DNA of 64,000 nucleotides, from positions 9,515-73,514 of the forward strand of contig JAAELY010000266.1 of the NCBI GenBank assembly GCA_024226335.1, given 5' to 3'. This DNA is from a bacterium (GTDB lineage Bacteria; Myxococcota_A; UBA9160; SZUA-336). Below, piece by piece: positions 7,425 through 38,962 of the stretch. Under the pieces are notes generated by a model. That model saw nothing but the letters and a program-made list of their open reading frames with translations, did no database searches and was not told the origin of the DNA. The translations under genes and the position numbers were made by a program. Each line of letters starts with the position of its first letter. Position 1 is the first letter of the stretch.

Positions 7425-7499
7425 CGCTTGTCTCCTACGGCTCGAATATCGAGCCTGTCGATCCCTCTTTCGTCACGGATCTTCTGCCGGGTCTCTCTC

Positions 7500-9326: not shown

Positions 9327-9456
9327 GGGTCCTGCCTGATCGTGGTTGGCGTCTGGCTACACGATACCACCGAATGGAGGGTCCGTGCTGTGCGGGAAAT
9401 CCGCCCTGGGGCCGTTGGAGAGATCAAGGGATCTTCATGCCAGCTATCCAGCGCGC

Positions 9457-9490
9457 CCCGATCCAAGGACCCCGATCCAAGGACCCCGAG
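9457..9490. repeat. Short tandem repeat, 14-bp unit CCCGATCCAAGGAC x2.4
   Basis: Direct tandem copies at 9457-9470 and 9471-9484, with a partial third copy, in the intergenic region upstream of a small membrane-protein gene. Confidence 0.8.
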
Positions 9491-9577
9491 CCAGGAGTTC
9501 AGGATTCATTTCCCCAAAACCAGACGCCCGGGCTAAGCTGCCCGCAAGAAGTCCAAATTCGGACTCGGGAGACGGAG

Positions 9578-13211: not shown

Positions 13212-13488
13212 GTCGGAAATCTACCGGAGTCCCGATTGCTGGCAAGGCGAGAACTCGGTCCTTTCCGTCAGCTTTATCGCGGAGTGTCAGGGGTGACGCG
13301 AGTGTCCGCGGTCGTGGCGGAACTGACGTCTCGCGGATCCTAAAGACCCGTTCGCAAGAGGATTTCCGCGGGACAATTCTGTCGCCGTTCGGCCAGGTCC
13401 AGGCTCGGTTTTTCTGCAAATCAAACGCGATTGAGTCTGACTCCGGGTCCGGGTAGGCTGGGCCCGAACTTTCCAGGAGGGCCGTGGA

Positions 13489-23680: not shown

Positions 23681-24259
23681 CTAGAGCTCGTCGATGGACT
23701 GGATGATCTTGCCGACCACTCCGTAGTCGAGAGCTTCCTGGGCCGTCATCCAGAAATTCCGGTCGGTGTCTTCCTCGATGCGTTCGAGTGACTGGCCGGT
23801 CTGCTCGGACAGGATGCGATTCAGGCGCTTGCGCATCTTGACGATCTCCTGCGCCTCGATTCCGATGTCGACGGCCTGACCGCGCACACCGCCCATCGGC
23901 TGGTGCAGGAGGAAGCGCGTGTTCGGCAGGCAGAAACGGTCTTCCTTGGCTGGGGCCACGAAGATGTGCGCACCCGCGCTTGCGACCCAGCCTGTCCCCA
24001 GAATCTTCACGCGCGGCTTCACGAAGCGAATGACGTCGTGGATCGTATCGCCCGCCTCCACGTGGCCGCCCGGCGAGTTGACGAACATGACGATGTCGCC
24101 CATATCGCTTTCCGCCATCGCGATCAGCTTCTTGGAGATTTCCCGGGCGACGTCCATGTTGATCTCGCCGTACAGGAAAATCCGCCGCTTCTCGAAGAGC
24201 GTCTCTTCGAGTCGCATCGGGAAGGGCATTGGCGTTTCGCTGGCGGGCTTGTCACTCAT
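23681..24259 (-). CDS. clpP: ATP-dependent Clp protease proteolytic subunit (ClpP family), solitary
   Basis: Complete catalytic triad context (GWVASAGA Ser, LLHQPMGG His, DTDRNFWMTAQEALDYG Asp). No clpX or clpA adjacent. Confidence 0.8.
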   Translation of the reverse strand: MSDKPASETPMPFPMRLEETLFEKRRIFLYGEINMDVAREISKKLIAMAESDMGDIVMFVNSPGGHVEAGDTIHDVIRFVKPRVKILGTGWVASAGAHIFVAPAKEDRFCLPNTRFLLHQPMGGVRGQAVDIGIEAQEIVKMRKRLNRILSEQTGQSLERIEEDTDRNFWMTAQEALDYGVVGKIIQSIDEL

Positions 24260-25047
24260 GCGTCCGGGTCTCCTTGAAGGCAGGGAGACTAGCGCCCCGG
24301 GCGCCCGCTCCCCACCCCGGCCGTAGGCGGACTCAGGGGCTCGAAGCCCCGATATCGTCCTCCCTCAACGATGATGGCCGCGATCGGCGCAGAAGTGCGA
24401 TCTGGCACCCGGAAAACGAGCAAGTCCTGAACCCGGTTTCCGTGACCGGGTGGGGCCGTTCCTCGTTGCGACAGCTACTTCCCTGGGAAAACCGTGCGAC
24501 GTAACTCGAATCGATTGCGACCCGGGTAAACTGTCTGCCAAGCTGTGGGGTCAGATAAATGGGACAAACGCGCGAGCACACACGGTGTAATCTCAAACTT
24601 GGGGAATTCGAGTCAACGGAAATAGATACGAGCTACGGCCCGATTCTCCTCCACCGAGAAGGTGGGTTCCATCACAGACATCCTATGATCGAGAGGCTTT
24701 CATCTGAAATGACAGAGAGATACTTTCCGTTCTGGCGAGAAGCTCCGCTGATGATCCGCACTGACCGGGAATTCATGTCCCGAGACCGAGGGCCAGAGGC
24801 CTCCGCGAGGGTGCGATTGCTGGACAATGTGGGCGTCGAGAGGGGGGGGGTGGCCGCGAATCGAGGCTTCCATCCCACGGCAGCTTCCGCCGGAACCTCC
24901 CGATTCAGATCATGGAGGTGGATGTCGGGGTTCTTCGCAAATCTGCCACAGGTTCTTTGGGTCGCCTCCGATGGGAACCGGACAATGAAACCCAATTTTG
25001 AATCCGACGATCCCGGTCTGCCGTACACAGGAGAATCGCATTCCGTC
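24260..25047 (+). promoter_or_regulatory. Long (about 790 bp) AT-richer non-coding leader/promoter region upstream of the 25.0-35.8 kb operon and divergent from clpP
   Basis: Local GC is visibly lower than the flanks. No convincing ORF: the in-frame extension of the downstream gene is acidic and not signal-peptide compatible. Contains an 8-bp palindrome AATCGATT at about 24509 and a G9 tract. Confidence 0.3.
24842..24850. repeat. Poly-G homopolymer (G9)
   Basis: A directly read run of nine G at about 200 bp upstream of the first operon gene, in an otherwise mixed-sequence leader. Confidence 0.9.
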
Positions 25048-26253
25048 ATGCACTCTCCGGTCTCTCGCGTTTTCTCGAGAACATGCGCGACACTACTGCT
25101 CGCTTTAGCTGTGCTGGCCTCGCCACCCTATGTTCGGGCGGGGGAGCCGGAAGACGATCCGCTGCTCGAACTCGGTACTGAAGACGGTCATGGCGGCGAA
25201 GACTTCATGAAGTACGACCGCGATCAGATCAAAAAGCAGGTCAAGACCTTCATCCCGCCGCTGCTGAGCCCGGCCTTTACCCAACATGCTTTCGTTCTTC
25301 CTCCTGGTCTGTTCAGGATGGGCCTTTCGCATCGGATCGTGTCGATCGATGGCAACGACTTCTTCAAGAACGGCAACACCAATCGAGCCGTGTTTGCAAA
25401 CTCGGAAGTCGACCGGGAACTGACCGATCTCGACATCTTCTACGGATTCGATCTGAATCGCGAGTACCTGCACGCCTTCACGGTGAGACTCAACATCCCG
25501 TACAAGAACTCGCGGGTTCGCGGCTACGTCCATCCCGGGGGGCTACAGGCACTCAACGCGCACAACACCGCAAGTACCCAGGAACTCGGAGATATCGGAC
25601 TCTTCCTCAAGAAGAAGCTCATGGATCAGGGCAACGGCCCGATCGGAATCGCAGCCGTCGGCGCGGTCTTCTTCCCGACCGGGGACAACGACGAAAGGTA
25701 CGGAAACGACGGGACGATCATGATGCAGATGCCACCGGCTGCACCGACCAGTTCTATCTTCGGGCGGTTTTCCGACGACGGTCGTCTCCCATCCACGCTA
25801 CAGCCCGGCACGGGGAGTTTCAGCTACCTGGGTGGGATGTTCCTGACCCGACAGTTTGATTGGCGTGGGCTTTCGTTGCGCGGCGCCTTTCACCTCGGTG
25901 CGACCTACCGGCTCGTGTTCAAAGAAGACGGGGTCGATCCCGGCGATACCGCGACGTATTTTGCGTCGCTGGTCATGCCGATCCGAAAGGATTTCTTGTC
26001 CGCGGATCTGACCTGCATCGTGTTCGACCACGAAGACGACAGCTACAGCGGGACGTTCATGGATCCGGTCCTGGGCGTGATTCCGCGACCGGACTTTTCC
26101 GGAGGAACGACTGGCTTCATCGCGCCGTCGTTGATTTTCAGTCCCGATCCGCAGTTCCGCGTGACGCTTTCAGCGCTCCTGCGGGTCAAGGATCCGGATC
26201 TCGGACCTGCGCCCCAGTCGATTATCCGACTCGGGTTTTCGGCGACGTTCTGA
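25048..26253 (+). CDS. Outer-membrane beta-barrel protein (MetA-pathway/transporter-like porin family candidate)
   Basis: Signal peptide (MHSPVSRVFSRTCATLLLALAVLASPPYVRA). Alternating amphipathic beta-strand pattern throughout. C-terminal aromatic residue (..LGFSATF) typical of OM barrels. Start at ATG 25048. Confidence 0.5.
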   Translation: MHSPVSRVFSRTCATLLLALAVLASPPYVRAGEPEDDPLLELGTEDGHGGEDFMKYDRDQIKKQVKTFIPPLLSPAFTQHAFVLPPGLFRMGLSHRIVSIDGNDFFKNGNTNRAVFANSEVDRELTDLDIFYGFDLNREYLHAFTVRLNIPYKNSRVRGYVHPGGLQALNAHNTASTQELGDIGLFLKKKLMDQGNGPIGIAAVGAVFFPTGDNDERYGNDGTIMMQMPPAAPTSSIFGRFSDDGRLPSTLQPGTGSFSYLGGMFLTRQFDWRGLSLRGAFHLGATYRLVFKEDGVDPGDTATYFASLVMPIRKDFLSADLTCIVFDHEDDSYSGTFMDPVLGVIPRPDFSGGTTGFIAPSLIFSPDPQFRVTLSALLRVKDPDLGPAPQSIIRLGFSATF

Positions 26254-26315
26254 CAGATGGAAAAGAAATACTCGATCGCGTTGGAAATGCTTCGACCTGA
26301 TTGTGCGGGGAAAAC

Positions 26316-29153
26316 ATGATGCGGATGTCAAAGAGAATCCTGGTCGGTTGCGTCATCGCCTCGATGAGCCTCTGGTGGATGGCGCCCATGGGAACCGCGA
26401 AGGTTCTCATGCACACGCCGGATGGTCGTGTCCTGCACCTCAAGGGAGGCACGGCTCAACCGGACCTGAGCCGGTTCCGGTCCGCATTGCAGAGCAAGGT
26501 CATGGATCGCCGCTTCCACACGAACGAGAACGGCTATCTCGCCAATGAGGCCTACTCCACCAGTCAGACCGGCTTCAATGACATGGTCAAGGCCGGAATT
26601 CCGGTGGCGTACAAGCCGGAGTTCCACTGGATCTCACACCAGGAAATGTACTGGAACGCGCGCTTCCTGTTGCAGTGGGCCGGCGCGGCCTCCCGACTCG
26701 GGATCTCCATGGTGCACGGCCCCTACTGGACATTGAAGGCCGATGAATTCTCGAGGCGGAACCGCTTTGGGCGAGATCGCGGTGAACGCTCTCTGTCCAA
26801 CAAGGACATCCTCATTGGCATCTACCTGCCGCTCTACTACTCCCGCACCGGCTTTCCGCGTGTGTTCGATTCGGCCTTTCCTACTTATCTGCAGTACGCA
26901 TCCGGCGACCCCCGCCTGGTGGGGCCGGTCGAGGTCGGGGACGACTTCGACGACCCGCAGAGCAGTAAGAAGGGCGGCTGGGGTGTGCCTCGCTATTTCC
27001 TCGATTGGACGAACCTGCGCTGGAATCACGACCGGATGGACACCACTATCCACATGGGAGGGCTGGGACAGTTCCTGAAGAGAAGGGCGCAGTGGACCGG
27101 CTATATGTTCCACAGCACGCACGTGGAGCAATCACCCTCGGACCCCGACGGCGATGAGATCTCCCTGCTCGGGAACGACGCGGAAGAAGGCTTCCGCGGA
27201 ACCGTTCTGGCCACCATGGCAATCAATACCATGCTCGAGGCCAAGGCCGCATTCTTCGCTGATGCGAAGGGGAAGAAACTCGGCGGGCTCAATCCCTTCA
27301 AGTACGATCCTGAAAACGGCCTGCGATACCTTCCGCATACCATCAAGCCGAACATTCTCTGGGTAGGGGATCTTCCCGAGCGGCTCTGGTCGGTCAGCAT
27401 TGCCGACAACTCCAGTCAGCTCTGGGACCAGGCGTCCTGGATCTGGGCAACCACCGAGTACAGTCACTTCGTCCTCTGGTACAACGATCAGGTCTTCACC
27501 GACAATCCGCCCGCGGATGGTGGCATCCTCGAAAAGCGGGTTGGACTCGTCTCGCGCGGGATGGCCAATGTCATCATCAAGAACCTCAGGGCCATGCACA
27601 CCCGCAAGGGCATCCTCGTTTCGGAGTGGACTCCCACAGGAGGGACCGGAAAGGTCCTGAGCATGCGGGATGCTGCCATGACCATGTCGGCCTTGAAGGA
27701 GTACGACGATCGTCACGAGTTCCTCGATGAGGATGAGGATCTCCGAGAAGACGCAGTCACCATGCTGATGGATCTCGCGGATTTCCTGGTGAAGGTCCAG
27801 GCGAAGGACGGATCGTTCTACGAGAAATACGACGTGACCAGCGGCGAGGGGCTCGGTGAGAACACTGTGTCCGCTCCCAACTGGGCCGGTATCAAGGCGC
27901 TGGTCGTGGCCTGGCAGAAGACGGAAGAGGAGGCTTACGCCCGCGCTGCGCGAAAGACCTTCAACCTGATGAATAGTAAGTACTGGGTTGAAAAACACGG
28001 CCTCTATCGCACGAGACTCGGCGACGACACGGTCACCCTCACTCCGTACGACATCGCGATCACACTGGGCGCTTTGCGCGAGACGCTCTTTGCGACACCT
28101 CTTCATCTGGTCGAACCACAACTCGACAGGATCACCCGTTGGTGGGTTCAGACCATGGATTCGAGTGGCATGCAGCAGACCGAGGACAATCGCACGGGTG
28201 AACTCGCCTTCGGCACGGCCGGGATGGACGAAGATGCGGACGGGATTCCCTTCGTCGCCGGCGGTTATGGGGAATACGGCACAGCACCGGTGACCGCGGC
28301 AAAGGTCGCGGTCAACATCGGCGGGTCCGAGAACTCCGCGTTCGCGGCTCTTGATGGAGACGCCTACAACGCCCAGAAGTACGCCGAGGTCAAATTCGCC
28401 TACGTCACCCAGTCTCGCAAGGAACAAGACGAGCTCCTGCTGCCTCTGGACATCCCTTCCGAGGGGCTGATCGAGCGTCCTCCGATGCAGAAGTTCAACG
28501 GAACCACCATCCCACTGGCCTCCAGCAAGCCGGTCGAACGCGGGCTGGGAATCAAACTCGGTCTTACAGGCAAGCAGATCTTCGAGATCAACTGCGTCCT
28601 GTGCCACGGTTTTTCGGGAGAGGGGATTACCGGTCTCTCGCTAGAGAAGGACGTGATGACGTTCTCACACGAAGAGATGTTCAAGGTCCCGAACGAGGGC
28701 CGGCACGAGAAACTCATGCCTCCGTGGGGTGTCGGGAACAAAGACAGTTTCGGTGGTCCGCTGAGTGAAGAAGAGATCCACCTCATCGTCAACTACGTGC
28801 AGAGTGACGAGTTTCGCGAGAAGTTCCAGGCCCATCAGGATGCTCTTCACGCCAAGGGCGATCCTCCGAAGGATCCTTTCGAGTACCTCTCCCGGCAATA
28901 CCAGAAGGGCACTTTGGAAAGCGCGACCGCTGACGATATTCGCCGCATCTCCCAGGCTCAGTGCAGGGCGAGTGATTGCATTCCGGAATCCCACAAGGTG
29001 TTCCGCCGGCTCCTGGCCGAGTCGCAGGGGAAGCAATCTCCGCGACTGGCCGATGCGGCTTCGGAGGAAGCGAAGGACCGTCCACAACCTTCTGCGGGGA
29101 GTGAATCCAGTCAGGCGCCGCCCGACAAGACAACAATCCTTACACGGCCATGA
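26316..29153 (+). CDS. Large secreted protein of unknown function with C-terminal monohaem cytochrome c domain
   Basis: Signal peptide (MSKRILVGCVIASMSLWWMAPMGTA). About 780 aa with no motif I recognise, then a class-I cytochrome c module (CVLCHGFSGEG ... LMPPWG). Start is ambiguous among ATGs at 26316, 26319 and 26325. The stop overlaps the next gene (ATGA). Confidence 0.6.
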   Translation: MMRMSKRILVGCVIASMSLWWMAPMGTAKVLMHTPDGRVLHLKGGTAQPDLSRFRSALQSKVMDRRFHTNENGYLANEAYSTSQTGFNDMVKAGIPVAYKPEFHWISHQEMYWNARFLLQWAGAASRLGISMVHGPYWTLKADEFSRRNRFGRDRGERSLSNKDILIGIYLPLYYSRTGFPRVFDSAFPTYLQYASGDPRLVGPVEVGDDFDDPQSSKKGGWGVPRYFLDWTNLRWNHDRMDTTIHMGGLGQFLKRRAQWTGYMFHSTHVEQSPSDPDGDEISLLGNDAEEGFRGTVLATMAINTMLEAKAAFFADAKGKKLGGLNPFKYDPENGLRYLPHTIKPNILWVGDLPERLWSVSIADNSSQLWDQASWIWATTEYSHFVLWYNDQVFTDNPPADGGILEKRVGLVSRGMANVIIKNLRAMHTRKGILVSEWTPTGGTGKVLSMRDAAMTMSALKEYDDRHEFLDEDEDLREDAVTMLMDLADFLVKVQAKDGSFYEKYDVTSGEGLGENTVSAPNWAGIKALVVAWQKTEEEAYARAARKTFNLMNSKYWVEKHGLYRTRLGDDTVTLTPYDIAITLGALRETLFATPLHLVEPQLDRITRWWVQTMDSSGMQQTEDNRTGELAFGTAGMDEDADGIPFVAGGYGEYGTAPVTAAKVAVNIGGSENSAFAALDGDAYNAQKYAEVKFAYVTQSRKEQDELLLPLDIPSEGLIERPPMQKFNGTTIPLASSKPVERGLGIKLGLTGKQIFEINCVLCHGFSGEGITGLSLEKDVMTFSHEEMFKVPNEGRHEKLMPPWGVGNKDSFGGPLSEEEIHLIVNYVQSDEFREKFQAHQDALHAKGDPPKDPFEYLSRQYQKGTLESATADDIRRISQAQCRASDCIPESHKVFRRLLAESQGKQSPRLADAASEEAKDRPQPSAGSESSQAPPDKTTILTRP

Positions 29154-30019
29154 CAGGAATAGATGTGACGATGGCAGAACCTCAAAACTCAGAAATGCTC
29201 TCCGAAAATCCGATTCAGCGCCTCGGTGCGCTCGTGTTGGTGCTCTTGCTCGTGCTGCCGATCACTGCTCACGCGGCCGGTTACAAGGAAACCCGGGTAG
29301 AAAACGGCGGGAGCATCACCGGCAAGCTGAGTTTCTCCGGTGAACTCCCGGCCGACGCCGTCGAAATGATCGCGGTCAACAAGAACCCGGAAGTCTGCGG
29401 AGAAGGCTATCGCGAGGTCGTCTGGGTGGACGTCGAGAACGGCGCGTTGCGCGGTGCCTTCGTCTATCTGCACAAGATCAAGAAAGGCAAGGCCTGGAGC
29501 CCACCAGACGGTGGCAAGTACATGATCAATCAGAAGGGCTGCCGTTTTCGACCTTGGGCCCAGGTCGTTCGCCAGGGCGATATCCATATCAAACACAGCG
29601 ACCAGGGTGTGCAACACAACATCAATATGGTCGAACTGATCGGGGTCGACAAAGGGCGAGCGGTCGAGAGGCCGCTGATCAATCGCAATCAGCCCGATCC
29701 CGGTGAAGCCATCGAGCAGATCAAGACGGTTCGCGCGCCTCATATCGCCATGAACTGCCAGGTTCACAACTTCATGTTCGGTTTCATGATGGCTCCTAAG
29801 AGTCCGTACGCCGTGGCGGTTGAAGAGGATGGCAGTTACGTCCTCGACAACGTGCCCGCGGGCAAATACACGCTCAAATCGTGGCATCCCCGGCTGGGAG
29901 TCCAGAAGAAGAAAATCACCGTTCCCGCGAACGGAGAGGTGGTCGCCGACTTCGAGTACACAAAAGACTCGGCTTCGAAGAAGCGAAGGCGACCCAGAAA
30001 GACCAAGGCAGAGAAATGA
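29150..30019 (+). CDS. Secreted protein with carboxypeptidase-regulatory-like/Ig-like beta-sandwich (function unknown)
   Basis: Signal peptide (LGALVLVLLLVLPITAHA). C-terminal SYVLDNVPAGKYTLKSWHP pattern resembles CarboxypepD_reg beta-sandwiches. Lys/Arg-rich tail. Translationally coupled on both sides. Confidence 0.45.
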   Translation: MTGIDVTMAEPQNSEMLSENPIQRLGALVLVLLLVLPITAHAAGYKETRVENGGSITGKLSFSGELPADAVEMIAVNKNPEVCGEGYREVVWVDVENGALRGAFVYLHKIKKGKAWSPPDGGKYMINQKGCRFRPWAQVVRQGDIHIKHSDQGVQHNINMVELIGVDKGRAVERPLINRNQPDPGEAIEQIKTVRAPHIAMNCQVHNFMFGFMMAPKSPYAVAVEEDGSYVLDNVPAGKYTLKSWHPRLGVQKKKITVPANGEVVADFEYTKDSASKKRRRPRKTKAEK

Positions 30020-31239
30020 CCGAAGAACACGGAGAACGAATCGTGATCACATCAGCACGGAGATTTGCTAAACGAATTCAGCTCGCGATGGCCTGTGCCG
30101 CGACTGCGTTGATGGTTCTCGCTGGCGCTATTGCAGTGGGAACGACGGAGACGGCCCGAGCCGAATCGGCGGATGAAGCGGGCGCATATCCGGCGATCGG
30201 CCCCTTGCCGACCCGAGATGCCCCGAAGGCCTCACTGGTCGAGATGGGTCGGCGCCTGTTCTTCGATCCGCGAATTTCCGGGGATGCCGGTCAGAGCTGC
30301 GCGACCTGTCACGATCCCGCGCAGGGATTCACTCGACAGACCGATGTCGAAGGCAAACCCATGCTCCTGTCCGACGCGTATCCGGGCATTCTCTACTTCC
30401 GCAATACACCGACATTGATCAATACCGCTTTTAAGGCGGACTTTGCCAACGTTGGTTGGGCCTGGGACGGTCGCATGGGTGCCAACCTGAACGATGTCGT
30501 TCGAGATCAGCTGACCGAGAGCATGATCATGAATATGGACATGCGCCTGATGCACGAGCGCATGAAGCAGGACCCGGTCTACGTAGGCATGTGCAAGGAG
30601 AACTTCGGCGGCGAGTGTAATTCGAGCGCCGGTCGCAAGGCTCTGGTCGCATTCATGGAATCCTTGGTGTCGAAGGACGCTCCCTTCGATAGCGGAACCG
30701 TTTCCGAGGCGGCCGGGCGCGGACGAGTTCTCTTCGAGGGCAAGGCGGACTGCATCCGCTGTCACAACGGTTCCTACTTCTCCGACGGTGAGGCGCATGA
30801 TACCGGCGTTTCCGAGAACCTGGATATCTTCCGAGATCCGTTGCGGCATGTCGGTCTGCGTGCCGTGTACAGCAATCACGGTGTGCCCAAGACGGATATG
30901 TGGCGGCGAGACGTCGGCTATTTCCTGGTGAGCAAGAACTACGGAGACGTGGGCAGTTTTATTACTCCGACGTTGCGGGAGCTCAAGTACACGGCTCCCT
31001 ATATGCACAACGGTGTGATCGGCACGCTGAATGAGGTCGTGGAGTTCTACGACCAGGGCGGCGGGCACGACGATCCACTGGCGAATGAGCTGAAACCTCT
31101 CGGACTTAGTACGGAGGAGAAGAGTGATCTCGTCGCCTTCCTCGAGAGTCTTTCCAGCGCCACTCCGATCGCTGTCGAGCTGGTGGAGATCCCCGAAACC
31201 TACGAGCCGATCGACGAATGGCTCGGCGTCCACAACTGA
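30016..31239 (+). CDS. Dihaem cytochrome c peroxidase (CCP/MauG family), copy 1
   Basis: Two haem motifs (CATCHDP and CIRCHNGSYF). Conserved CCP regions (FFDPRISGD, TPTLRELKYTAPYMHNG). The ATG overlaps the upstream stop (ATGA). Confidence 0.8.
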   Translation: MTEEHGERIVITSARRFAKRIQLAMACAATALMVLAGAIAVGTTETARAESADEAGAYPAIGPLPTRDAPKASLVEMGRRLFFDPRISGDAGQSCATCHDPAQGFTRQTDVEGKPMLLSDAYPGILYFRNTPTLINTAFKADFANVGWAWDGRMGANLNDVVRDQLTESMIMNMDMRLMHERMKQDPVYVGMCKENFGGECNSSAGRKALVAFMESLVSKDAPFDSGTVSEAAGRGRVLFEGKADCIRCHNGSYFSDGEAHDTGVSENLDIFRDPLRHVGLRAVYSNHGVPKTDMWRRDVGYFLVSKNYGDVGSFITPTLRELKYTAPYMHNGVIGTLNEVVEFYDQGGGHDDPLANELKPLGLSTEEKSDLVAFLESLSSATPIAVELVEIPETYEPIDEWLGVHN

Positions 31240-31282
31240 TTTCAGGCGTCCCGTACGACACCGCAGTTTGAAGGTAAACAAA

Positions 31283-32521
31283 ATGAAGTCGCCAAACAGA
31301 ACGCAGGGCTTGTTGATCGCGCTCTTGCTCGTCGTCGCTCCTGTGGCATTCGCCCAGGAAGACCCCGATTTCGATCCGCCTCTGGCACCACTTCCGCCAC
31401 CACCGGCGCCTCCGGACAACCCGATCACGCCCGCGAAGACGGAGCTCGGCAAACTCCTGTTCTTCGACACACGCTTGACGGGTGACGCGAGCTTGAGTTG
31501 TGGCGACTGTCACGATCCGAAGAAGGGTTGGGGCTCCAGCGGACCGATCTCGCGCGGTTATCCCGGTGCGGTCCACTGGCGCAATTCCCATACTGCCGTG
31601 AACTCCGCCTACCTGGGGAAACTCTTCTGGCAGGGAAGCGCCAAGAGCCTCGAAGGCCAGGCTCCGACCGCCAATCGCGGTGCGGTGGCGGGAAATGGCG
31701 AGCGGGACGTGATGCAGAGTCGGCTTCGCCAGACTCCCTACTACATCAAGGCATTCAAGGAAGTCTTCGGCACCGAGCGACCCAATCTCGGCGACGCCTG
31801 GCAGGCTGTCGCGACGTTCGAACGCGCGGCGTTGTCTCAGCTCGATACGCCACTGGACCAGTATCTCGCGGGCGACGAGTCGGCTCTTTCCGAAGAGGCG
31901 ATCGAGGGACTCGAGTTGTTCCGCGGCAAGGCCGGTTGCATCGAGTGCCACAACGGCCCTCTGCTCACGGATGAGAAATACTACAACCTGGGTCTACCGC
32001 GGCCCATCGAGTGGGAATCGATCGGTCTGAACACGATCACCTTCCGCTGGGAGACCTACGCCAAGGGTGCTCCCGAAAAGAGCTATCGAGAGTGGAAGGA
32101 CGACGCGGGGCTGTACTTCACGACCAAGCGCAAGGATGACATCGGGAAGTTCCGCACTCAGCCACTCCGGTATCTCCTGTACACCCCTCCGTACGGGCAC
32201 GCCGGGCAGTTCTACACACTGGAGGAGGTCGTCGACTTTTACGACGAAGGTGGAGGCGAGAACGAGTTCACCGATGGCACACACGGTTTCAATACGAAGA
32301 CGCCGATCCTGAAGCCTCTCAATCTCAGCGATGAAGAGAAAGAGGTGTTGGTGATCTTCCTGGAAGAAATCAGCGGTGAGGAAATCACGATGGCCGTTCC
32401 GAAGATCCCAATGTACGAGGCGATGCCCGATGTGGCTGAACTGACGCAAGCTTCGGCCAAGCGAATCGGCCTCGAGACGTATCTGTCCTCTCTTGCTGGA
32501 AAGGAGGAGGTGAGCAAATGA
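31283..32521 (+). CDS. Dihaem cytochrome c peroxidase (CCP/MauG family), copy 2, with Pro-rich N-terminal linker
   Basis: Signal peptide. PLAPLPPPPAPPDNP linker. Haem motifs CGDCHDP and CIECHNGPLLT. Conserved C-terminal PPYGHAGQFYTLEEVVDFY. Confidence 0.8.
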   Translation: MKSPNRTQGLLIALLLVVAPVAFAQEDPDFDPPLAPLPPPPAPPDNPITPAKTELGKLLFFDTRLTGDASLSCGDCHDPKKGWGSSGPISRGYPGAVHWRNSHTAVNSAYLGKLFWQGSAKSLEGQAPTANRGAVAGNGERDVMQSRLRQTPYYIKAFKEVFGTERPNLGDAWQAVATFERAALSQLDTPLDQYLAGDESALSEEAIEGLELFRGKAGCIECHNGPLLTDEKYYNLGLPRPIEWESIGLNTITFRWETYAKGAPEKSYREWKDDAGLYFTTKRKDDIGKFRTQPLRYLLYTPPYGHAGQFYTLEEVVDFYDEGGGENEFTDGTHGFNTKTPILKPLNLSDEEKEVLVIFLEEISGEEITMAVPKIPMYEAMPDVAELTQASAKRIGLETYLSSLAGKEEVSK

Positions 32522-33072
32522 CCGAGCAGAAGAAATCCTCGTCGTGTCGGGGTGGTTGCATTACCAGACGTGAGGCTCTGCTAGGAGGCGCTGGAGTGAT
32601 CACCAGCACCGTCTTGCTCAGCACTCTTCCCGGATGCGAGAAAAGCGAACCGGTGCCCGTTCAGGTGTCCCGTCATCCGGGCAAGCTGATCGGCAAGCTG
32701 AGTGAGTTGAAACAGAATCAATCCGTATCTTTTTCATTTCCGGAAGGCGCCGCCAACGCGACGGGCATGTTGATCAAGATGGGTGTTCAGGCCGGAGGAG
32801 GCATCGGACCGGAACAGGACATCGTCGCTTTCAATACGACCTGTCCTCACATGGGCGGACAACTCTACGGGCGCTACATACCCGAGGAGCAGGCTCTGGG
32901 CGCCTGTCCCCATCACCTTTCATCGTTCGACCTGACTCGCCACGGCATGGTCATCGCCGGCCATGCCACCGAGAGCTTGCCGCAAGTGCTGCTTGAACTC
33001 GACGGAGACGACATCTACGCCGTGGGCCTGATTGGTCTGATCTACGGCCACACTTCAAATCCCGAAGCCTGA
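32518..33072 (+). CDS. Rieske [2Fe-2S] small subunit with twin-arginine signal (AioB/IdrB-like)
   Basis: TAT motif TRREALLGGAG. Rieske boxes CPHMGG and CPHHLS. Strong AAGGAGGAGG Shine-Dalgarno. ATGA overlap with the upstream peroxidase gene. Confidence 0.75.
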   Translation: MTEQKKSSSCRGGCITRREALLGGAGVITSTVLLSTLPGCEKSEPVPVQVSRHPGKLIGKLSELKQNQSVSFSFPEGAANATGMLIKMGVQAGGGIGPEQDIVAFNTTCPHMGGQLYGRYIPEEQALGACPHHLSSFDLTRHGMVIAGHATESLPQVLLELDGDDIYAVGLIGLIYGHTSNPEA

Positions 33073-33088
33073 TCGAGGAATAGGAATC

Positions 33089-35782
33089 ATGTCTGCAAAA
33101 GATTCAAAGCCATTCTACAAGTCGTCGGAGCAGGTTCCGCTTCCGCCAAAAGATGCCGAGGTCCTCACCACGTGTTGCGACTACTGCATCGTGGCGTGTG
33201 GACAGAAGGTCTACCGCTGGCCCGCCGACGGTCCCAACGGGGGCATGAAGAAGAGCGAAAATGCGCTCAACCGAGATTACCCATTGGCTCCGATGGTGGG
33301 CAACTGGCTTGGACCGAACCAGTTCACCCAGGCGATGCACAACGGGAAGCTCCACAATATTGCCGTCGTACCGGACGGCGACGCGACCGTCGTCAATGTG
33401 GGCGGAAATCACAGTATTCGCGGTGGTTGCATTGCCCAGAAGGTGTACAGCGAGAAGAAGCCGACTCGGGATCGCTTGAAGCACCCGATGATTCGCATCG
33501 CCGGGAAACTGACACCGGTGAGCTGGGACCTGGCCCTGGACGTCGCCGCCGAGGTCTCCAAGCACGTCATCAAGCACCACGGCGAAGACGCCTGGGCCCT
33601 GAAGTACTTCAGCTATCAGTTCTACGAGAACACGTACGCGCTCACGCGCTTGGCGTTCAAGAGCATCAATACGATGGCGGTCGCCCAGCACGACCACCCG
33701 GCGATCGTGGATGCGACTCCCGGCTGGACGGATATCGGCTACGACAGTTTCCCGTCGTCGTACGAGGACTTCCTGCACGCCGATTGCGTCGTGATCTCCG
33801 GAGTGGATCCGTTCGAGACCAAGTCGGTGTTGTGGAGCGAGTGGATTTCTCGGGGCATGATCGAGAACAAGACGAAACTCGTGATGATCAATCCCAGAAA
33901 GACGGTCGGCGTTGCCGCGGCCGAGAAGAACGGCGGTCTGCACCTGGATGTGAATCCCGGCTCCGATACCGTCGTACACATGGCGATCGAGCGTGTGATC
34001 CTGGAAAACGGTTGGGAGGACACCGAGTTCATCAAGAACTGGGTGAACAATTTCTGGGAGACCGATTCCGGTTTCGGTCAGGGAACCCGCAACACGCCCT
34101 GGCAGTGGCGAACCACCTGGGGGAAATTCCAGGTCAAGGACTTCGCCGACTGGAAGAAGTGGATTCTGGAGCAGGAAGAGTCCAAGCCCGATGTCGCTGC
34201 GGCGATTGCCGGGATCGACCCTCAGAAGATCTACAAGGCCGCAGAGATGATGGCCAAGCCGAAAGCTGATGGCGAACGGCCCAAGACCATGATCGCGATC
34301 GAAAAGGGCAACTACTGGTCCAATAACTATCTGAACACTGTTTCGATCGGTACGCTAGGCGTGATTCTCGGATGCAGTGGTCGCAAGGGACGTGGCATCA
34401 CTCGTCTGGGTGGCCACCAGCGCGGTGGGCGGAGCGGGGGCAAGTATCCGACCTGGAAGTCTCCCTACAAGATGCCCGGTCGGCGCCATCATCGGATCGA
34501 CCTGGACCGCTGGGTCGAAGATGGCCACGTGCGCTTTGCCTACGTCGTCGGTACGACGTGGATCCAGTCCATGGCCGGTTCGGGTGATCTGAAGCAGACT
34601 TTCCAAGCGAAGACTCGCGACAATCCGCATCAGATTCAGTCAGCGGATAAGCAGCACATCATCGATACGCTCAAGAAACGAGTCGAGTCGGGCGGGATGG
34701 TGGTCGCCCACCAGGATCTCTATCTCATCGAACCCATCGGTAGTGAATTTGCCGACATCGTGCTTCCTGCTTCGGGTTGGGGCGAGTCGGATTTCACGCG
34801 CTGCAACGGAGAACGTCGCATTCGCCTGTACTCCGGCTTCTACGATCCGCCGGGAGAAGCCTTGCCCGACTGGAAGATCGTTTCCATGTTCGCGAAGAAG
34901 ATGGGATTCGAGGGCTACGACTGGAAGGAGTCCAATGACGTTTTCGAGGAGACCTGTCGCTTCAGTCGAGGCGGTCGAACCGATTACAACGTCTTGCGCA
35001 CGGTCGCCAAACGGAAGGGCATGAAGACCCACGACCTGCTTCGGACCTACGGTACGACTGGATTGCAGTGTCCGCTGCTCCTCGATGGAGAGAAGATCAT
35101 CGAGACCAAACGACTGCACGATTTCGAACGCGATGATCTACCTGCCACGGGGCCAGCGGGGGTGAGCGTTCAGCGCAAGAACCTGATGGCCTTCAAGACG
35201 CACACCGGCAAGCTGAACCTGTTGAAGTCACCCTGGAATATCTGGTCCGATTTCTACGAGTTCATGCGACCCAAAGACGATGAGCTGTGGGTAACCAACG
35301 GGCGCGTCAACGAGATCTGGCAATCGGGTTTCGACGATACAGAGCGTCGTCCGTACATTCAGCAGCGCTGGCCGGACAACTTCCTCGAGATCCATGAGGA
35401 AGATGCGCGCGCCCGCGGCATCGAAACCGGTGACCGCGTCGAGATCGAGTCGAAACGCGTTCCCGTCCAAAAGGATTTCAATCTGGGCGTCAAGAGCGAC
35501 GATATGTGGTTCTCTGGTCTGATGAAGCGCAACCACATCAAGATCGTCACCGGAAAATTCGAAGCGGTGGCTATCATCACTCCGGTCGTGAAAAAGGGAG
35601 TGGTCTTTACGAACTTCCTGGACAAGAACCAACCGGCCAATAGCATCACGCCGAGGGTTCCGGATCCGCTCAGCATGAACTACCGCTTCAAGCTCTCATC
35701 GGGAACGGTCAAGAAGATCGGTGAATCCCCTTACAAGGACACCTACGCCCAGATGAGCCTCAAGAGGCGGAATATCGTTTAG
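33089..35782 (+). CDS. Molybdopterin (bis-MGD) oxidoreductase large subunit of the arsenite-oxidase/iodate-reductase (AioA/IdrA) clade
   Basis: 897 aa with no signal peptide of its own, consistent with TAT hitch-hiking on the Rieske partner. N-terminal Cx2Cx3C (TCCDYCIVACG) [3Fe-4S] motif characteristic of AioA-type enzymes. Molybdopterin oxidoreductase and C-terminal MGD-binding-like regions. Confidence 0.75.
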   Translation: MSAKDSKPFYKSSEQVPLPPKDAEVLTTCCDYCIVACGQKVYRWPADGPNGGMKKSENALNRDYPLAPMVGNWLGPNQFTQAMHNGKLHNIAVVPDGDATVVNVGGNHSIRGGCIAQKVYSEKKPTRDRLKHPMIRIAGKLTPVSWDLALDVAAEVSKHVIKHHGEDAWALKYFSYQFYENTYALTRLAFKSINTMAVAQHDHPAIVDATPGWTDIGYDSFPSSYEDFLHADCVVISGVDPFETKSVLWSEWISRGMIENKTKLVMINPRKTVGVAAAEKNGGLHLDVNPGSDTVVHMAIERVILENGWEDTEFIKNWVNNFWETDSGFGQGTRNTPWQWRTTWGKFQVKDFADWKKWILEQEESKPDVAAAIAGIDPQKIYKAAEMMAKPKADGERPKTMIAIEKGNYWSNNYLNTVSIGTLGVILGCSGRKGRGITRLGGHQRGGRSGGKYPTWKSPYKMPGRRHHRIDLDRWVEDGHVRFAYVVGTTWIQSMAGSGDLKQTFQAKTRDNPHQIQSADKQHIIDTLKKRVESGGMVVAHQDLYLIEPIGSEFADIVLPASGWGESDFTRCNGERRIRLYSGFYDPPGEALPDWKIVSMFAKKMGFEGYDWKESNDVFEETCRFSRGGRTDYNVLRTVAKRKGMKTHDLLRTYGTTGLQCPLLLDGEKIIETKRLHDFERDDLPATGPAGVSVQRKNLMAFKTHTGKLNLLKSPWNIWSDFYEFMRPKDDELWVTNGRVNEIWQSGFDDTERRPYIQQRWPDNFLEIHEEDARARGIETGDRVEIESKRVPVQKDFNLGVKSDDMWFSGLMKRNHIKIVTGKFEAVAIITPVVKKGVVFTNFLDKNQPANSITPRVPDPLSMNYRFKLSSGTVKKIGESPYKDTYAQMSLKRRNIV

Positions 35783-35789
35783 CGACACC

Positions 35790-35823
35790 GACGCGGAGTT
35801 CCGGTGAGCCGGAACTCCGCGTC
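35790..35823. terminator. Perfect 15-bp inverted repeat hairpin between convergent genes
   Basis: GACGCGGAGTTCCGG tgag CCGGAACTCCGCGTC. Located 8 nt after the Mo-subunit stop and 6 nt before the stop of the opposite-strand PhyH gene. No U-tract, so a likely bidirectional or factor-dependent terminator or REP-like element. Confidence 0.5.
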
Positions 35824-35828
35824 GGCCG

Positions 35829-36668
35829 TCACTTCGCTCCTTCACGCTCGTACAGGATGGGATTCAACGGGCTCGCGATCGGATCGCCGACCGCGCAACC
35901 CGGTGCCCAGCGCTTCTGATCGTATTCCTGGAACGCGTCGGCCGGTTCCGCGACGCGCATGTCTCGATCCATATAGATCATCGTCATGGCGGCGCGGGTT
36001 TCTTCGGTCTGGTTCGGGTCCGCCCGGTGGAACGTGAAGCCGTAGTGGAAGCTCACGTCTCCTAGTTCGTAGGGCTCGGCGACCACGCGGATTCCGGCCG
36101 CCGAAAGCGAAGCGGCGATCTCACTCTCTCCGCGCTCACTGATCCCGAAGCGCCGCCCGTGATCCGTTTCCTGGGTTCCCACTGCAAAGGCCAGGGCTCC
36201 CGCTTCGACGGACGTCGCCTGCAGCGGAATCCAGGCGGTGATGCTCAGTCCGCTCGACATCGGCCAGAAGAACTGATCGACGTGCCATGGGGTCGCTCCA
36301 CCGCCGGTTTCCTTGTAGAGCGCCTGGTCGTGCCACATGCGCACGCCTTCGCATCCCAGTAGTTCGTTGGCGATGCGCGCGCAGCGCAGGTTCAGACTGA
36401 AGGGACGGATGGCTTCGTGGCGCTCCCAGAGGTTCGTGATCTGGATGAAGGCCTGCGCGTAGGCGTTTCGCTCTTCCAGCGGGAGCACGTTCGGATCTTC
36501 CGCCGAAACGATGCTCGTGATCTGCTCTGCGAAAAACTCCAGAAGCTCCTTCGAGAAGACCCCGGGAAGCCGGATGAAACCATCGCTGCGATAAGCCGCG
36601 ATCTGCTCGGCGGAAAGAGAGTAGGGACGATCGAGTTCTTCCCGGAAACGCGCGGGTAGATCCTGCAA
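35829..36668 (-). CDS. Phytanoyl-CoA dioxygenase (PhyH) family Fe(II)/2-oxoglutarate oxygenase
   Basis: PhyH-family pattern with an HxD...H facial triad context (PWHVDQFFWP ... SFHYGFTFH). Confidence 0.7.
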   Translation of the reverse strand: MQDLPARFREELDRPYSLSAEQIAAYRSDGFIRLPGVFSKELLEFFAEQITSIVSAEDPNVLPLEERNAYAQAFIQITNLWERHEAIRPFSLNLRCARIANELLGCEGVRMWHDQALYKETGGGATPWHVDQFFWPMSSGLSITAWIPLQATSVEAGALAFAVGTQETDHGRRFGISERGESEIAASLSAAGIRVVAEPYELGDVSFHYGFTFHRADPNQTEETRAAMTMIYMDRDMRVAEPADAFQEYDQKRWAPGCAVGDPIASPLNPILYEREGAK

Positions 36669-36672
36669 CGCC

Positions 36673-37521
36673 CTAGGCTCCGCTCACCGGAGTCTCATCT
36701 TTGGGAGGTGGGGCGCCTCCGACGAGGATCGGGTACTGCCGATCGGGAGCATCGCAGCGGGTCCGCACGGCCTCGTCGCCAGTTCCCGTAATCACATGGG
36801 CACCGTCGGGTGCGAACTGGACGACGTAGGCGTTGCGCGGGCGGTCCGTCGTCCTATTCGGTCCGGTTTTGTGCGGCGTCAGCGATGAGAAGACGACCAC
36901 CCCGCCGGCACGGACCGGAGCGGCAATCATTTCATACTTGCTCTCGTCTCCCACGCAATCGAAACCGTATTCAGTCTGCTCATGGGCCCAGGTGCCGTCC
37001 CTGTGGTAACCCGGAATAACGACCGGACAGCCGTTCTGCTCGTCGGCATCCGTCAACGCTACCCAGCAGGTCAGATACTGCTGCGGATCCACGTAGGTGT
37101 AGCCATTGTCCTGATGCCACGGAAACTCTTCGGCCATCTGCGGTTTCTTGTACACCGTCTGGTCCCAGTAAAGACGAACGTCTTGGCCGACCAGGTCGTG
37201 CACCAGGTCGCTGAAAAAGCCGCTACGCGTCAACTCCCTGGCCTTCGGCGAGCGGGTCACCATATGTGGCGTGAACGTGATTTCCCCAGAGCGTGCGATG
37301 AACATCTTTCCGCCGAAGCGCTCGTCGAGCATCTCTTCGAACTTGCGCTCGAGTGGGTCGAGTTCGCCGCGCAGAGCCTCGATCGTGGCTGCGTCGAAGA
37401 CGTCTTCGAAGACCAGGAATCCCTTTTCGTCGAATTGCCTGGCCTGCTCCTCGTTGATCAGGCGGAAGGGTCCCTTGTGGTTCTCCCAATGGAAACTCTT
37501 GTTGAGTTCGTGCTTGATCAC
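36673..37521 (-). CDS. Phytanoyl-CoA dioxygenase (PhyH) family protein, second paralog
   Basis: FPWHQDNGY ... LTPHKTGPN. Sits 4 nt upstream of the first PhyH gene on the same strand. Confidence 0.7.
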   Translation of the reverse strand: MIKHELNKSFHWENHKGPFRLINEEQARQFDEKGFLVFEDVFDAATIEALRGELDPLERKFEEMLDERFGGKMFIARSGEITFTPHMVTRSPKARELTRSGFFSDLVHDLVGQDVRLYWDQTVYKKPQMAEEFPWHQDNGYTYVDPQQYLTCWVALTDADEQNGCPVVIPGYHRDGTWAHEQTEYGFDCVGDESKYEMIAAPVRAGGVVVFSSLTPHKTGPNRTTDRPRNAYVVQFAPDGAHVITGTGDEAVRTRCDAPDRQYPILVGGAPPPKDETPVSGA

Positions 37522-37710
37522 CGATCTCCTCCCGCGGCCATGGCAGCCACTTCAGATGGGCCACTCCTACCTCAGATCCTATCCCAAATACCCCTGATTC
37601 ACGGATCGGCAGCCCTCAGTGGTTGGCCGGGCGAAGTGGTAGGATCGCTAGAAGCGAATCCAAAACACTCAACGGCGTTTCGTTTCGCGCGTTGGAAGAC
37701 TGGAGTACTC

Positions 37711-38898
37711 ATGCGAACCGATCTCTGTGACCTCTTCGGAATCGACGTGCCCGTATTTGCCTTCAGCCACTGTCGGGATGTCGTGGCCGCAGTGACCAAC
37801 GCCGGGGGACTCGGGGTGCTGGGCGCACTCGCGTTTTCCGATGAGCAACTCGAGATCGAGTTGAACTGGATCGATGAGCACGTCAACGGAAAGCCCTACG
37901 GCGTCGACGTGGTCATGCCGGCCAGCTATGCGGGCAAGAGCGAGGGACTGGGATCTCGGGACGACAAGACAGGCACGGTCGATGCCGACGTCTTCAAGAA
38001 CATGATACCCGCGGAGACCCGCGAGTGGATCGAGGAGATCCTGCAAGAGTACGAAGTTCCGCCGCTTCCCAGAGGCTCGGAGCGCGACGAAGGGGTTGGC
38101 GGCGGTAGTTCCGGATTGCTCGGTTGGACTGAAGGAGGAGGCCGCGGTCAGGTCGCCATTGCGCTCGAGCATCCGATCTCTCTGCTGGTTAACGCTCTCG
38201 GACCACCTCCAAAGGACATCATCGAGCTCGCCCATGAGCACGGCGTCAAGGTGGCCGCGCTCACCGGCGCGGTGGAGCACGCCATTCGCCAGAAAGAACA
38301 AGGTGTCGACATCATCGTCGCTCAGGGAACGGAAGCCGGCGGGCACACAGGAGAGGTGGGTTCAATGGTTCTGCTTCCGGATATTGTCGATGCGGTTTCC
38401 CCGACACCGGTTCTGGGCGCAGGCGGGATCGGCAGCGGGCGACAGGCCGCAGCGGCTCTGGCTCTCGGAGCGCAGGGTGTATGGACGGGCTCGATCTGGC
38501 TCGGTGTCGCCGAAAGCGATATGTCCCCGGTGGTCAAGAACAAACTGCTGGCCGCCGGATCGCGGGACGCTGTGCGATCCCGCAGTCTTTCAGGCAAGCC
38601 CGCCCGTTTGCTGAGGACGGCCTGGACCGAGGCCTGGTTGCGCGATGATTGTCCCGGAACGCTTCCCATGCCACTCCAGTACATGGCCTGCGCAGAGGCG
38701 CAGACGCGAATTGGCCTGGCAGCGCGCAAGCCCGGGGCGAAGGCCCGAGAACTGGTGGGCATCCCGGTGGGCCAGGTCGTGAGCCGCATGGTCGACGAGG
38801 AGACGTCCGCGCAGCTGATCTATCGCTTCATGGAGGAGTTCATCGAATGCGTCGAGCGCCTCAATGGAATGCTGACGGCGGCGGAAGACCGCGGCTGA
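37711..38898 (+). CDS. Nitronate monooxygenase (NMO/2-nitropropane dioxygenase) family FMN enzyme
   Basis: FGIDVPVFAFSH, VVAQGTEAGGHTG and GAGGIGSGRQAAAALALGAQGVWTGS motifs. Start at MRTDL with a GGAG Shine-Dalgarno. Confidence 0.8.
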   Translation: MRTDLCDLFGIDVPVFAFSHCRDVVAAVTNAGGLGVLGALAFSDEQLEIELNWIDEHVNGKPYGVDVVMPASYAGKSEGLGSRDDKTGTVDADVFKNMIPAETREWIEEILQEYEVPPLPRGSERDEGVGGGSSGLLGWTEGGGRGQVAIALEHPISLLVNALGPPPKDIIELAHEHGVKVAALTGAVEHAIRQKEQGVDIIVAQGTEAGGHTGEVGSMVLLPDIVDAVSPTPVLGAGGIGSGRQAAAALALGAQGVWTGSIWLGVAESDMSPVVKNKLLAAGSRDAVRSRSLSGKPARLLRTAWTEAWLRDDCPGTLPMPLQYMACAEAQTRIGLAARKPGAKARELVGIPVGQVVSRMVDEETSAQLIYRFMEEFIECVERLNGMLTAAEDRG

Positions 38899-38962
38899 AA
38901 CTCCGTCCTGGAATACCTATCTTCCGTTCTGTAGACGGACCTGACGTGAAATCGAACTTCCG

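Follow-up and report, generated by a model that had tools for sequence, protein, structure and literature searches.

A predicted six-hairpin barrel joined to a class-I cytochrome c in an exported bacterial protein encoded beside an outer-membrane channel

Within a 64,000-nucleotide stretch of the bacterial contig JAAELY010000266.1 (the window, to which positions refer unless another locus is named), the second gene of a seven-gene operon encodes an exported protein of 945 residues that joins a large domain, modelled as a six-hairpin (α/α)6 barrel, to a C-terminal class-I cytochrome c. The gene directly upstream encodes an outer-membrane channel. Channel-paired proteins of this kind are undescribed in the literature that we searched, which covered idr accessory genes, fusions of cytochrome c with epimerases or toroids, FapF/COG4313 channels and bd-like oxidases, and they have no family model in Pfam or NCBIfam. 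In the window the operon continues into genes resembling those of iodate reduction (idr). Across 37 loci, the channel gene and the barrel–cytochrome gene form an independent cassette that one lineage has joined to idr and that is linked to respiratory electron transfer generally, not to iodate particularly. The reading that we favour, at a probability of about 0.4, is that of a periplasmic redox module in which the channel would admit a substrate, the barrel would process it and the haem would relay electrons to the pool of periplasmic carriers.

The barrel–cytochrome gene is open for 945 codons plus a stop at 26316-29153 on the forward strand, with a TTG at 26301 as an alternative start; the identical protein at NCBI (P0001, ‘MAG: cytochrome c [bacterium]’) is called as 942 residues. 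Its 142 homologues, with E-values down to 0, identify it as a real gene, and no other copy (paralogue) was found within the window. From the N terminus to the C terminus, the protein is laid out as follows, with model confidence given as the predicted local distance difference test (pLDDT).

26316-26399 (+): Sec-type signal peptide, residues 1-28, read from the letters by eye, with low model pLDDT at the cleavage region
26400-28175 (+): predicted six-hairpin (α/α)6 barrel with β-insertions, residues ~29-620, from AlphaFold2, Foldseek, profile searches and conservation
28176-28547 (+): ordered extension from the barrel to the haem domain, residues 621-744, pLDDT mostly above 90
28548-28820 (+): class-I monohaem cytochrome c domain, residues 745-835, from PF13442, PF00034, profile matches and ligands
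28593-28607 (+): CVLCH, C760-V-L-C763-H764
28716-28718 (+): Met801, within LMPPWG
28821-29153 (+): clade-specific C-terminal tail, residues 836-945, and stop; helical, then disordered

The N terminus, MMRMSKRILVGCVIASMSLWWMAPMGTA/KV (slash, putative cleavage site), reads as a Sec signal peptide, by eye and without a predictor, and the mature N terminus (AK..TPDGR) is kept in the family consensus. We rejected a lipoprotein signal via LVGC (residues 9-12), since just four hydrophobic residues precede the cysteine and that cysteine is unconserved.

An AlphaFold2 model of the whole protein, built on 70 homologues, reaches a pLDDT of 90.1 and a predicted template-modelling score (pTM) of 0.90 and shows a helical barrel with β-rich insertions at about residues 65-620, with 13 long helices between residues 101 and 616. 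When the model was compared with the PDB by Foldseek, the top 20 matches were exclusively chains of the cellobiose/N-acylglucosamine 2-epimerase (AGE) family, including YihS and mannose isomerase, followed lower down by glycoside hydrolases (GH) of families GH88, GH105, GH76 and GH48; these matches have E-values of ~1e-4, 10-13% identity and template-modelling (TM) scores of 0.37-0.59 on the target. A profile of the family and its distant relatives, searched against the PDB, found cellobiose 2-epimerase at E = 1e-10 and GH76 mannanases at 2e-4, the epimerase match being restricted to the generic helical-hairpin repeat, without the catalytic positions. Three homologues pass the cut-off of PF07221, the AGE model (23.4 bits), at 25-26 bits and over just ~60-80 residues. 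In the window protein itself, residues 29-745 match no Pfam family even at E ≤ 1, PF07221 included, nothing in NCBIfam and, in a single-sequence search, nothing in the PDB, whose sequences match the haem domain alone. The same residues contain no cysteine, 2.8% Trp, 3.9% Tyr and 13% Asp plus Glu. We conclude that the modelled domain branches remotely within the six-hairpin superfamily, unclassified and outside every named family, and that it resembles the sugar epimerases at the level of fold or superfamily only.

Pfam and NCBIfam matches of the protein are limited to the C-terminal cytochrome, where Cytochrome_CBB3 (PF13442, 31.3 bits; cut-off 27) and Cytochrom_C (PF00034, 28.1 bits; cut-off 21.3) both cover residues 751-830. 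Profile matches of the haem domain include CcoP, cytochrome c6, the haem domains of cd1 nitrite reductase and quinohaemoprotein alcohol dehydrogenase, and 2zoo. Exactly one CxxCH motif and Met801 occur in 68 of the 70 aligned family members, with C760, C763, H764 and M801 all present. The domain is a conserved class-I cytochrome c with predicted His/Met ligation, Met801 being the putative sixth ligand. The extension that precedes it carries a DxDxDG-type loop, D638-E-D640-A-D642-G643, with D640, D642 and G643 invariant and D638 conserved to at least 90%, a motif suggestive of calcium binding. Beyond the haem domain, the 110-residue tail is modelled with helices at residues 854-920 and with pLDDT below 50 from residue 922, the last ~35 residues being disordered; it is poorly conserved and missing from homologues of ~800-850 residues, and its C883 and C888 are not conserved.

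These results bear out most of what an earlier, sequence-only reading of this DNA had said about the protein: that it is secreted and 945 residues long, that about 780 residues rich in Trp, Tyr and acids hold no recognised motif, that an α/α-toroid fold might be guessed, and that a CVLCH monohaem domain follows with a distal Met candidate in LMPPWG. Nor does the N-terminal region match a well-known enzyme family with an established function of its own. A Pro/Glu-rich linker, placed by that reading before the haem domain (~700-745), is modelled instead as an ordered chain packed on the protein, with pLDDT above 90, and not as a floppy segment.

A word-index search found at least 142 clusters of full-length relatives in about ten phyla, 42-76% identical and 800-1130 residues long, nearly all with the C-terminal cytochrome. 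The hosts are largely lithotrophs and methanotrophs (Nitrospinales, Methylomirabilis (NC10), Methylococcales and sulphur oxidisers); marine nitrite oxidisers, Gemmatimonadota, Planctomycetota and at least one cultured Shewanella are further hosts. In the barrel–cytochrome family 71 alignment columns are invariant, mostly Asp, Glu, Arg, His, Trp, Tyr and Gly, and among them are the two histidines H341 and H428 as well as D364, S367, D371, D401, E406, D452, R588 and E589. An exhaustive HMMER search with a profile of the N-terminal domain only returned 253 clusters at 50% identity, about eight of which are of the barrel–cytochrome type; the remaining clusters are 21-30% identical and haem-less, many of them inside very large proteins that carry SdrD_B, DUF11, CarboxypepD_reg or type IX secretion system (T9SS) sorting domains. 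Across the superfamily, these haem-less relatives included, P340, S367, L369, H428, G499 and A545 are invariant and W236, D371, R588, E623, D640 and D642 are at least 90% conserved. The 71 invariant columns, together with a core of H428, S367, D371, R588 and E623 that reaches into relatives of 21-30% identity, argue for a conserved pocket and not a passive scaffold, and the alignments suggest that this pocket predates the haem fusion.

Two Gemmatimonadota members (P0084 and P0117, at loci L027 and L039) stop after the barrel, at 725-729 residues, and have no cytochrome domain. At L039 a separate gene for a 187-residue monohaem cytochrome c follows directly; at L027 there is no such gene. We rejected this ‘split’ cytochrome as strong Rosetta-stone evidence, since it is a generic class-I cytochrome with 28% identity to the fused domain. 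At the other extreme of size, the giant distant relatives P0248, P0251, P0254 and P0262 have 1,667-5,473 residues, and in both giants that were scanned (P0248 and P0251) the barrel domain sits amid SdrD_B, DUF11, GEVED and CarboxypepD_reg repeats. The giants belong to an uncharacterised surface-protein superfamily whose core domain has no Pfam model.

The partner of the barrel–cytochrome gene lies immediately upstream.

24985-26253 (+): outer-membrane channel gene, 422 residues, protein ending ...SATF; the start agrees with the NCBI call (P0121)

Its AlphaFold2 model (m40eff6714ecf; pLDDT 85.8) matches FapF (5o65; E = 5e-12, TM 0.66-0.75) and the COG4313 channel Pput2725 (4rl8; TM 0.75) in Foldseek, both of which are 12-stranded barrels (PMC5557850, PMC4493636). 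On the strength of this model, the protein is a FapF/COG4313-type 12-stranded barrel with an N-terminal helical region. It contains no CxxCH, and no Pfam family matches it, PF13557 included; among its 120 listed homologues, 2 match PF13557. A channel homologue, 40-68% identical, stands immediately 5′ of the barrel–cytochrome gene in all 33 loci with enough upstream sequence, L036 being the sole informative locus without a channel gene, and the two families are of similar size (at least 163 clusters for the channel, at least 142 for its partner). The channel gene is the obligate upstream partner of the barrel–cytochrome gene. In a Methylococcales locus (L001/L038; ~6480-9975 of a 1.4-Mb contig), the channel gene is split by transposase genes, IS66-like and others; the barrel–cytochrome gene there is intact, which makes the locus a natural knock-out of the partner gene. 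In the window, the longest open reading frame of the channel gene starts at 24559 (564 residues), whereas the homologues and NCBI start at 24985, with a signal peptide. The 142-codon 5′ extension (24559-24984, +) is probably untranslated, which would leave a non-coding gap of ~725 nt between the divergent clpP (23681-24259, minus strand) and the operon.

The 37 distinct loci sampled for context, from look-ups and one scan of GTDB species genomes, show what else accompanies the pair. Genes for c-type cytochromes, from mono- and di-haem to tri- to penta-haem, lie directly 3′ in at least 11 loci. Six loci, three in Gemmatimonadota (L012, L018 and L029) and three in Parvularculaceae and Sphingomonadales (L014, L015 and L035), form an operon with a Cyt_bd_oxida_I-like membrane protein (in L012, PF01654 at 92.7 bits), cytochromes c and EB_dh haem-b domains. 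These bd-like operons also hold a 700-residue paralogue without a Pfam match, di- and mono-haem cytochromes c and cytochrome-c/EB_dh fusions, and they resemble the ‘bd-like terminal oxidase’ clusters discussed for Nitrospirota. In an elusimicrobiotal locus (L004), the cassette accompanies a bona fide narGHJ cluster, with an Rrf2 regulator (12966-13454) in between; in a Binatia locus (L042), it accompanies a type-II enzyme of the dimethyl sulfoxide (DMSO) reductase family, again with an Rrf2 regulator (9450-9887) in between. This placement in two unrelated phyla hints at common regulation of cassette and molybdoenzyme. Two-component regulators occur at 13 loci. The pair stands alone in several gammaproteobacterial loci, including that of the cultured Shewanella hanedai JCM 20706, whose neighbourhood (a GH18 chitinase, an octopine-type dehydrogenase and an amidohydrolase) gave no hint of function.

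Genes of the idr type are a local feature of this picture. The order idrP2-P1-B-A follows the barrel–cytochrome gene in one monophyletic clade, which comprises the window and loci L005, L008, L009 and L043 (5 of the 37 loci) and whose taxa are Planctomycetota, Phycisphaerales, Lentisphaeria and an unassigned metagenome contig (L043). A second, alphaproteobacterial clade (L006) has idr genes 7 kb from the barrel–cytochrome gene; none occurs within 10 kb in any other of the 37 loci. As idr is rare, chance is unlikely to have placed it near the gene in two unrelated clades of the barrel–cytochrome protein. The published canonical iodate-reduction island is idrABP1P2 alone, with ‘poor conservation of genes surrounding’ (PMC8692401), and these four genes, once cloned, are enough for E. 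coli to reduce iodate (PMC13455634); the barrel–cytochrome gene is therefore no general Idr component. The sequence-only reading had proposed that the tethered cytochrome exchanges electrons with the peroxidases or the Rieske–molybdenum enzyme. The part that stands is the exchange role, which the conserved His/Met class-I haem domain makes reasonable; a specific partnership with Idr does not stand, and the gene does not co-occur with idrA and idrB throughout, idr being adjacent in 5 of 37 loci and within 10 kb in one more. Literature descriptions of otherwise syntenic idr loci lack the gene. That no such partner had been described for Idr or Aio systems agrees with the literature searched on idr accessory genes, in which we found none.

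Downstream of the barrel–cytochrome gene, the window operon comprises five further genes.

29150-30019 (+): 289-residue exported protein, cupredoxin-like with a CarboxypepD_reg/transthyretin-like β-sandwich, from ATGA coupling and motifs
29881-31239 (+): di-haem cytochrome c peroxidase, IdrP-like; PF03150 at 110 bits, 73% identical to the syntenic L005 gene
31124-32521 (+): second di-haem cytochrome c peroxidase, IdrP-like; PF03150 at 117 bits, 84% identical to the L005 gene
32518-33072 (+): Rieske small subunit, IdrB/AioB-like; TIGR02694 at 106.7 bits (cut-off 95.65)
33089-35782 (+): molybdopterin large subunit, IdrA/AioA-like; TIGR02693 at 396.6 bits (cut-off 359), with Rieske_3, Molybdopterin and Molydop_binding

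The stop codon of the barrel–cytochrome gene overlaps the ATG of the next gene in an ATGA at 29150-29153. The 289-residue protein encoded there has a signal peptide (...PITAHA/AGYKE, read by eye from the letters; slash, putative cleavage site) and, in its N-terminal half, LHNxH and C-x2-H-x2-M (NCQVHNFM in the window), the pattern of type-1 copper ligands with amicyanin spacing, which is kept in 16 homologues. A paralogue aligns with the amicyanin CTPHPFM across the ligands at E = 0.03, and homologues give weak matches to Cupredoxin_1 and Copper-bind. The CarboxypepD_reg β-sandwich is a weak match in the window protein, where it is the sole Pfam annotation, and reaches 44 bits in the L018 homologue. 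Judged from its motifs, the protein is probably an unrecognised blue-copper carrier fused to a transthyretin-like β-sandwich. Homologues lie 3′ of the barrel–cytochrome gene in about a third of loci.

For the two peroxidases, comparison with the 384-residue L005 gene puts the true start of the first at probably ~30085, and that of the second is probably ~31295. Their best NCBIfam models (29881-32521) are MauG, of tryptophan tryptophylquinone (TTQ) biosynthesis, and MbnH, at 146-181 bits and far below the cut-offs; the top models for these two di-haem proteins are thus not peroxidase models, and the proteins are only 34% identical to each other. We considered the barrel–cytochrome protein as a substrate of MauG/MbnH-like Trp modification and rejected this, since most of the family has no such di-haem enzymes as neighbours. 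The order P-P-B-A is that reported for idr clusters (PMC10989891), and Planctomycetaceae homologues are counted among deep-branching IdrA (PMC8692401, PMC10989891). A promoter and terminator scan of 24200-36000 gave signals at or below shuffle expectation and is uninformative on the limits of the operon. After the operon come two tandem PhyH-type dioxygenase genes on the minus strand (35829-37521) and, at 36982-39820 (+), a nitronate-monooxygenase-like gene followed by a radical-SAM gene; L043 also has radical-SAM/SPASM genes after idrA.

In the periplasmic redox module that we favour, a FapF/COG4313-type channel would admit a small substrate, the 945-residue protein would bind and convert it in the pocket of its six-hairpin barrel, and the tethered His/Met haem c would serve as a built-in relay to soluble periplasmic carriers. 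In the lineage of the window, the cassette and a cupredoxin-like carrier are joined in a single operon with idrP2-P1-B-A, and the haem domain and the cupredoxin would then wire the barrel enzyme to the peroxidases and the Rieske–molybdenum enzyme. In that operon the most likely arrangement is an electron-input (dehydrogenase) module, which would feed the peroxidases and IdrAB. What the analysis shows are the gene, its export signal, the modelled fold, the conserved haem-ligand residues, the pairing with the channel gene, the coupling to the cupredoxin-like gene and the recurrent surroundings of cytochromes and respiratory enzymes; in this scheme we infer that the barrel is both catalytic and redox-active, that the channel supplies its substrate, what that substrate is and which way the electrons run.

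Support for the redox module comes from the fold and the haem domain themselves, from the conserved residues of the barrel, from the haem domain kept with its ligands in 68 of 70 members (and the separate cytochrome gene at L039), from the constant channel partner, from enzymes in which a tethered cytochrome c serves as a relay, and from its neighbours, which are overwhelmingly electron-transfer proteins. Complexes of the bd-like kind with a periplasmic cytochrome b have been read as terminal oxidases that take periplasmic electrons (PMC9040806); as such oxidases are fed from the periplasm, a donor-side (dehydrogenase) role is favoured. Several results weigh on the other side, above all that the barrel has no recognisable redox cofactor site: it contains no Cys, no known metal, flavin or pyrroloquinoline quinone (PQQ) motif and no Pfam match. 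In structure it comes closest to glycoside hydrolases and to sugar epimerases and isomerases that work without a cofactor, and its distant sequence relatives in giant surface proteins are haem-less, so the chemistry of the barrel may not be redox chemistry. At many loci (for example, L044, L024, L020 and L026) the pair has no electron-transfer neighbour, and no result constrains the direction of electron flow. FapF, the nearest solved relative of the channel, exports an unfolded polypeptide and does not import small molecules (PMC5557850).

That the six-hairpin barrel constitutes a new kind of redox catalytic domain, wired by c-haem into respiratory chains, we regard as doubtful. Such a domain could let electrons from some unrecognised small-molecule donor enter a lithotrophic chain or, within the idr operon, could supply the missing enzyme for the reduction of hypoiodous acid or iodine to iodide, a step now ascribed to abiotic disproportionation or a Cld-like protein (PMC8692401). 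Iodide oxidation by the barrel–cytochrome protein was rejected, since it would be thermodynamically uphill towards cytochrome c.

Alternatively, the barrel could bind carbohydrate or act on it without redox chemistry, as an epimerase, lyase or hydrolase of envelope glycan, exopolysaccharide or imported oligosaccharide. The haem domain would then be accessory and might sense the redox state, serve as a handle for docking or supply electrons to a separate oxidative enzyme. The best structural and profile matches of the barrel (2-epimerases, YihS, GH76, GH88, GH105 and GH48) and the three members above the PF07221 cut-off point this way, as do the Trp, Tyr, Asp and Glu that dominate the invariant residues, the secreted or surface-located distant relatives with SdrD_B, DUF11, CarboxypepD_reg and T9SS tails, and the β-sandwich of the next gene, a domain also found in polysaccharide lyase family 4. 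Outer-membrane barrels and (α/α)6 enzymes form pairs in polysaccharide secretion, AlgE/AlgL and BcsC/BcsZ being examples. Identity to any carbohydrate enzyme is, however, only 10-13%, and the sequence match is to a generic hairpin repeat and does not reach the catalytic histidines of the AGE enzymes. The hosts are largely lithotrophs and methanotrophs, the neighbours are electron-transfer proteins and not glycosyltransferases or sugar transporters, and the haem domain is almost universally retained. On balance we hold a carbohydrate role to be possible but improbable. A dedicated electron carrier, in which haem c would be the sole functional centre and the barrel a scaffold docking to the channel or to partners, and which in the window would act as donor to IdrP1/P2 and IdrAB, strikes us as unlikely. 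In its favour, the protein is encoded in one operon, with translational coupling, alongside two peroxidases, IdrBA and a cupredoxin-like protein; small cytochromes c or cupredoxins are the partners of bacterial di-haem peroxidases and of Aio-type enzymes, and the NCBIfam name of the Aio enzyme model is ‘arsenate reductase (azurin)’. The unrecognisable cofactor site would also fit a mere carrier. Against it, 71 invariant columns in a 700-residue domain are a much tighter constraint than a scaffold would need, two members keep the barrel without the haem domain, most loci have no Idr and many no other redox enzyme, and canonical idr islands function without the gene (PMC8692401, PMC13455634).

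Less likely still, and by our estimate very improbable, is that a FapF-like exporter delivers the 945-residue protein, or part of it, to the surface for an extracellular role in redox chemistry or adhesion, as a split analogue of a porin–cytochrome. FapF, a polypeptide secretion channel, is indeed the top structural match of the partner (PMC5557850), the gene pairing is obligate, and distant relatives of the barrel domain are surface proteins. FapF passes unfolded chains, however, and a folded 100-kDa holo-cytochrome is too big for a 12-stranded barrel; the COG4313 uptake channel is an equally good match (PMC4493636), and some homologues match PF13557. One haem is too few to span the outer membrane, and the neighbouring cytochromes and cupredoxin have ordinary signal peptides, which indicates a periplasmic location. 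The probability left after these four readings (the redox module, the carbohydrate domain, the carrier and the exported protein) belongs to some other explanation.

Among known systems, those nearest in kind are periplasmic enzymes that carry a cytochrome relay on a tether. A tethered cytochrome c of this sort serves as an intramolecular relay in type II quinohaemoprotein alcohol dehydrogenase, in cd1 nitrite reductase and in a copper nitrite reductase; we take 2zoo to be a copper nitrite reductase whose deposited chain has a C-terminal cytochrome c. Similar to the enzymes in 1kv9/1yiq, 1nir and 2zoo, the window protein combines a putative catalytic domain with one predicted His/Met haem c, and the haem domains are homologous. 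By contrast, the catalytic domains of those enzymes are β-propellers or cupredoxins with PQQ, haem d1 or Cu, whereas here there is a barrel without a recognisable site. With the AGE and cellobiose 2-epimerases (PF07221; 3wkf, 7d5g and 5zhb; also YihS, GH76 and GH88/105), the protein shares a fold (Foldseek probability 1.0, TM to 0.59), but its domain is ~300 residues larger, with β-rich insertions, and it is exported, fused to haem c and channel-paired. Structural and profile matches led to a single solved precedent in which an AGE-like barrel bears a redox domain, the DUF255/YyaL type (7tkv, Brucella Bab1_2064); its redox domain is a thioredoxin at the N terminus, where the window protein has a cytochrome c at the C terminus, and it lacks a channel partner. 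The window channel is of the same barrel type as FapF and Pput2725, at 11-15% identity, and its gene lies outside fap operons and aromatic-degradation clusters. Porin–cytochrome conduits (Cyc2 and MtrAB-type) differ in that here the channel and the haem protein are separate and there is one haem only; an Fe(II)-oxidiser preprint returned by the literature search is irrelevant to the family, as it deals with Cyc2 only. Finally, the idrABP1P2 island of Pseudomonas sp. SCT and Denitromonas IR-12 has the same composition as the four downstream genes of the window, in the order P-P-B-A, but is described without the channel, barrel–cytochrome and cupredoxin genes, which are additions of the window clade only.

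The cassette is widespread and strongly conserved and lies repeatedly inside respiratory clusters, with iodate reductase, nitrate reductase, a type-II molybdenum enzyme or bd-like oxidases. Were the barrel a redox enzyme, it would point to an electron donor or acceptor so far overlooked in low-oxygen marine and groundwater habitats. In iodate respiration, deep-branching Planctomycetota-type idr operons would carry three extra components, the channel, the barrel–cytochrome and the cupredoxin, beyond the four-gene models. Were it instead a carbohydrate enzyme equipped with a haem handle, it would couple the glycan chemistry of the envelope to the redox state of the periplasm in an unusual way. 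And should a new redox domain prove true, the cassette, with or without the cupredoxin, would amount to a respiratory module that has gone unrecognised, moves horizontally and spans about ten phyla.

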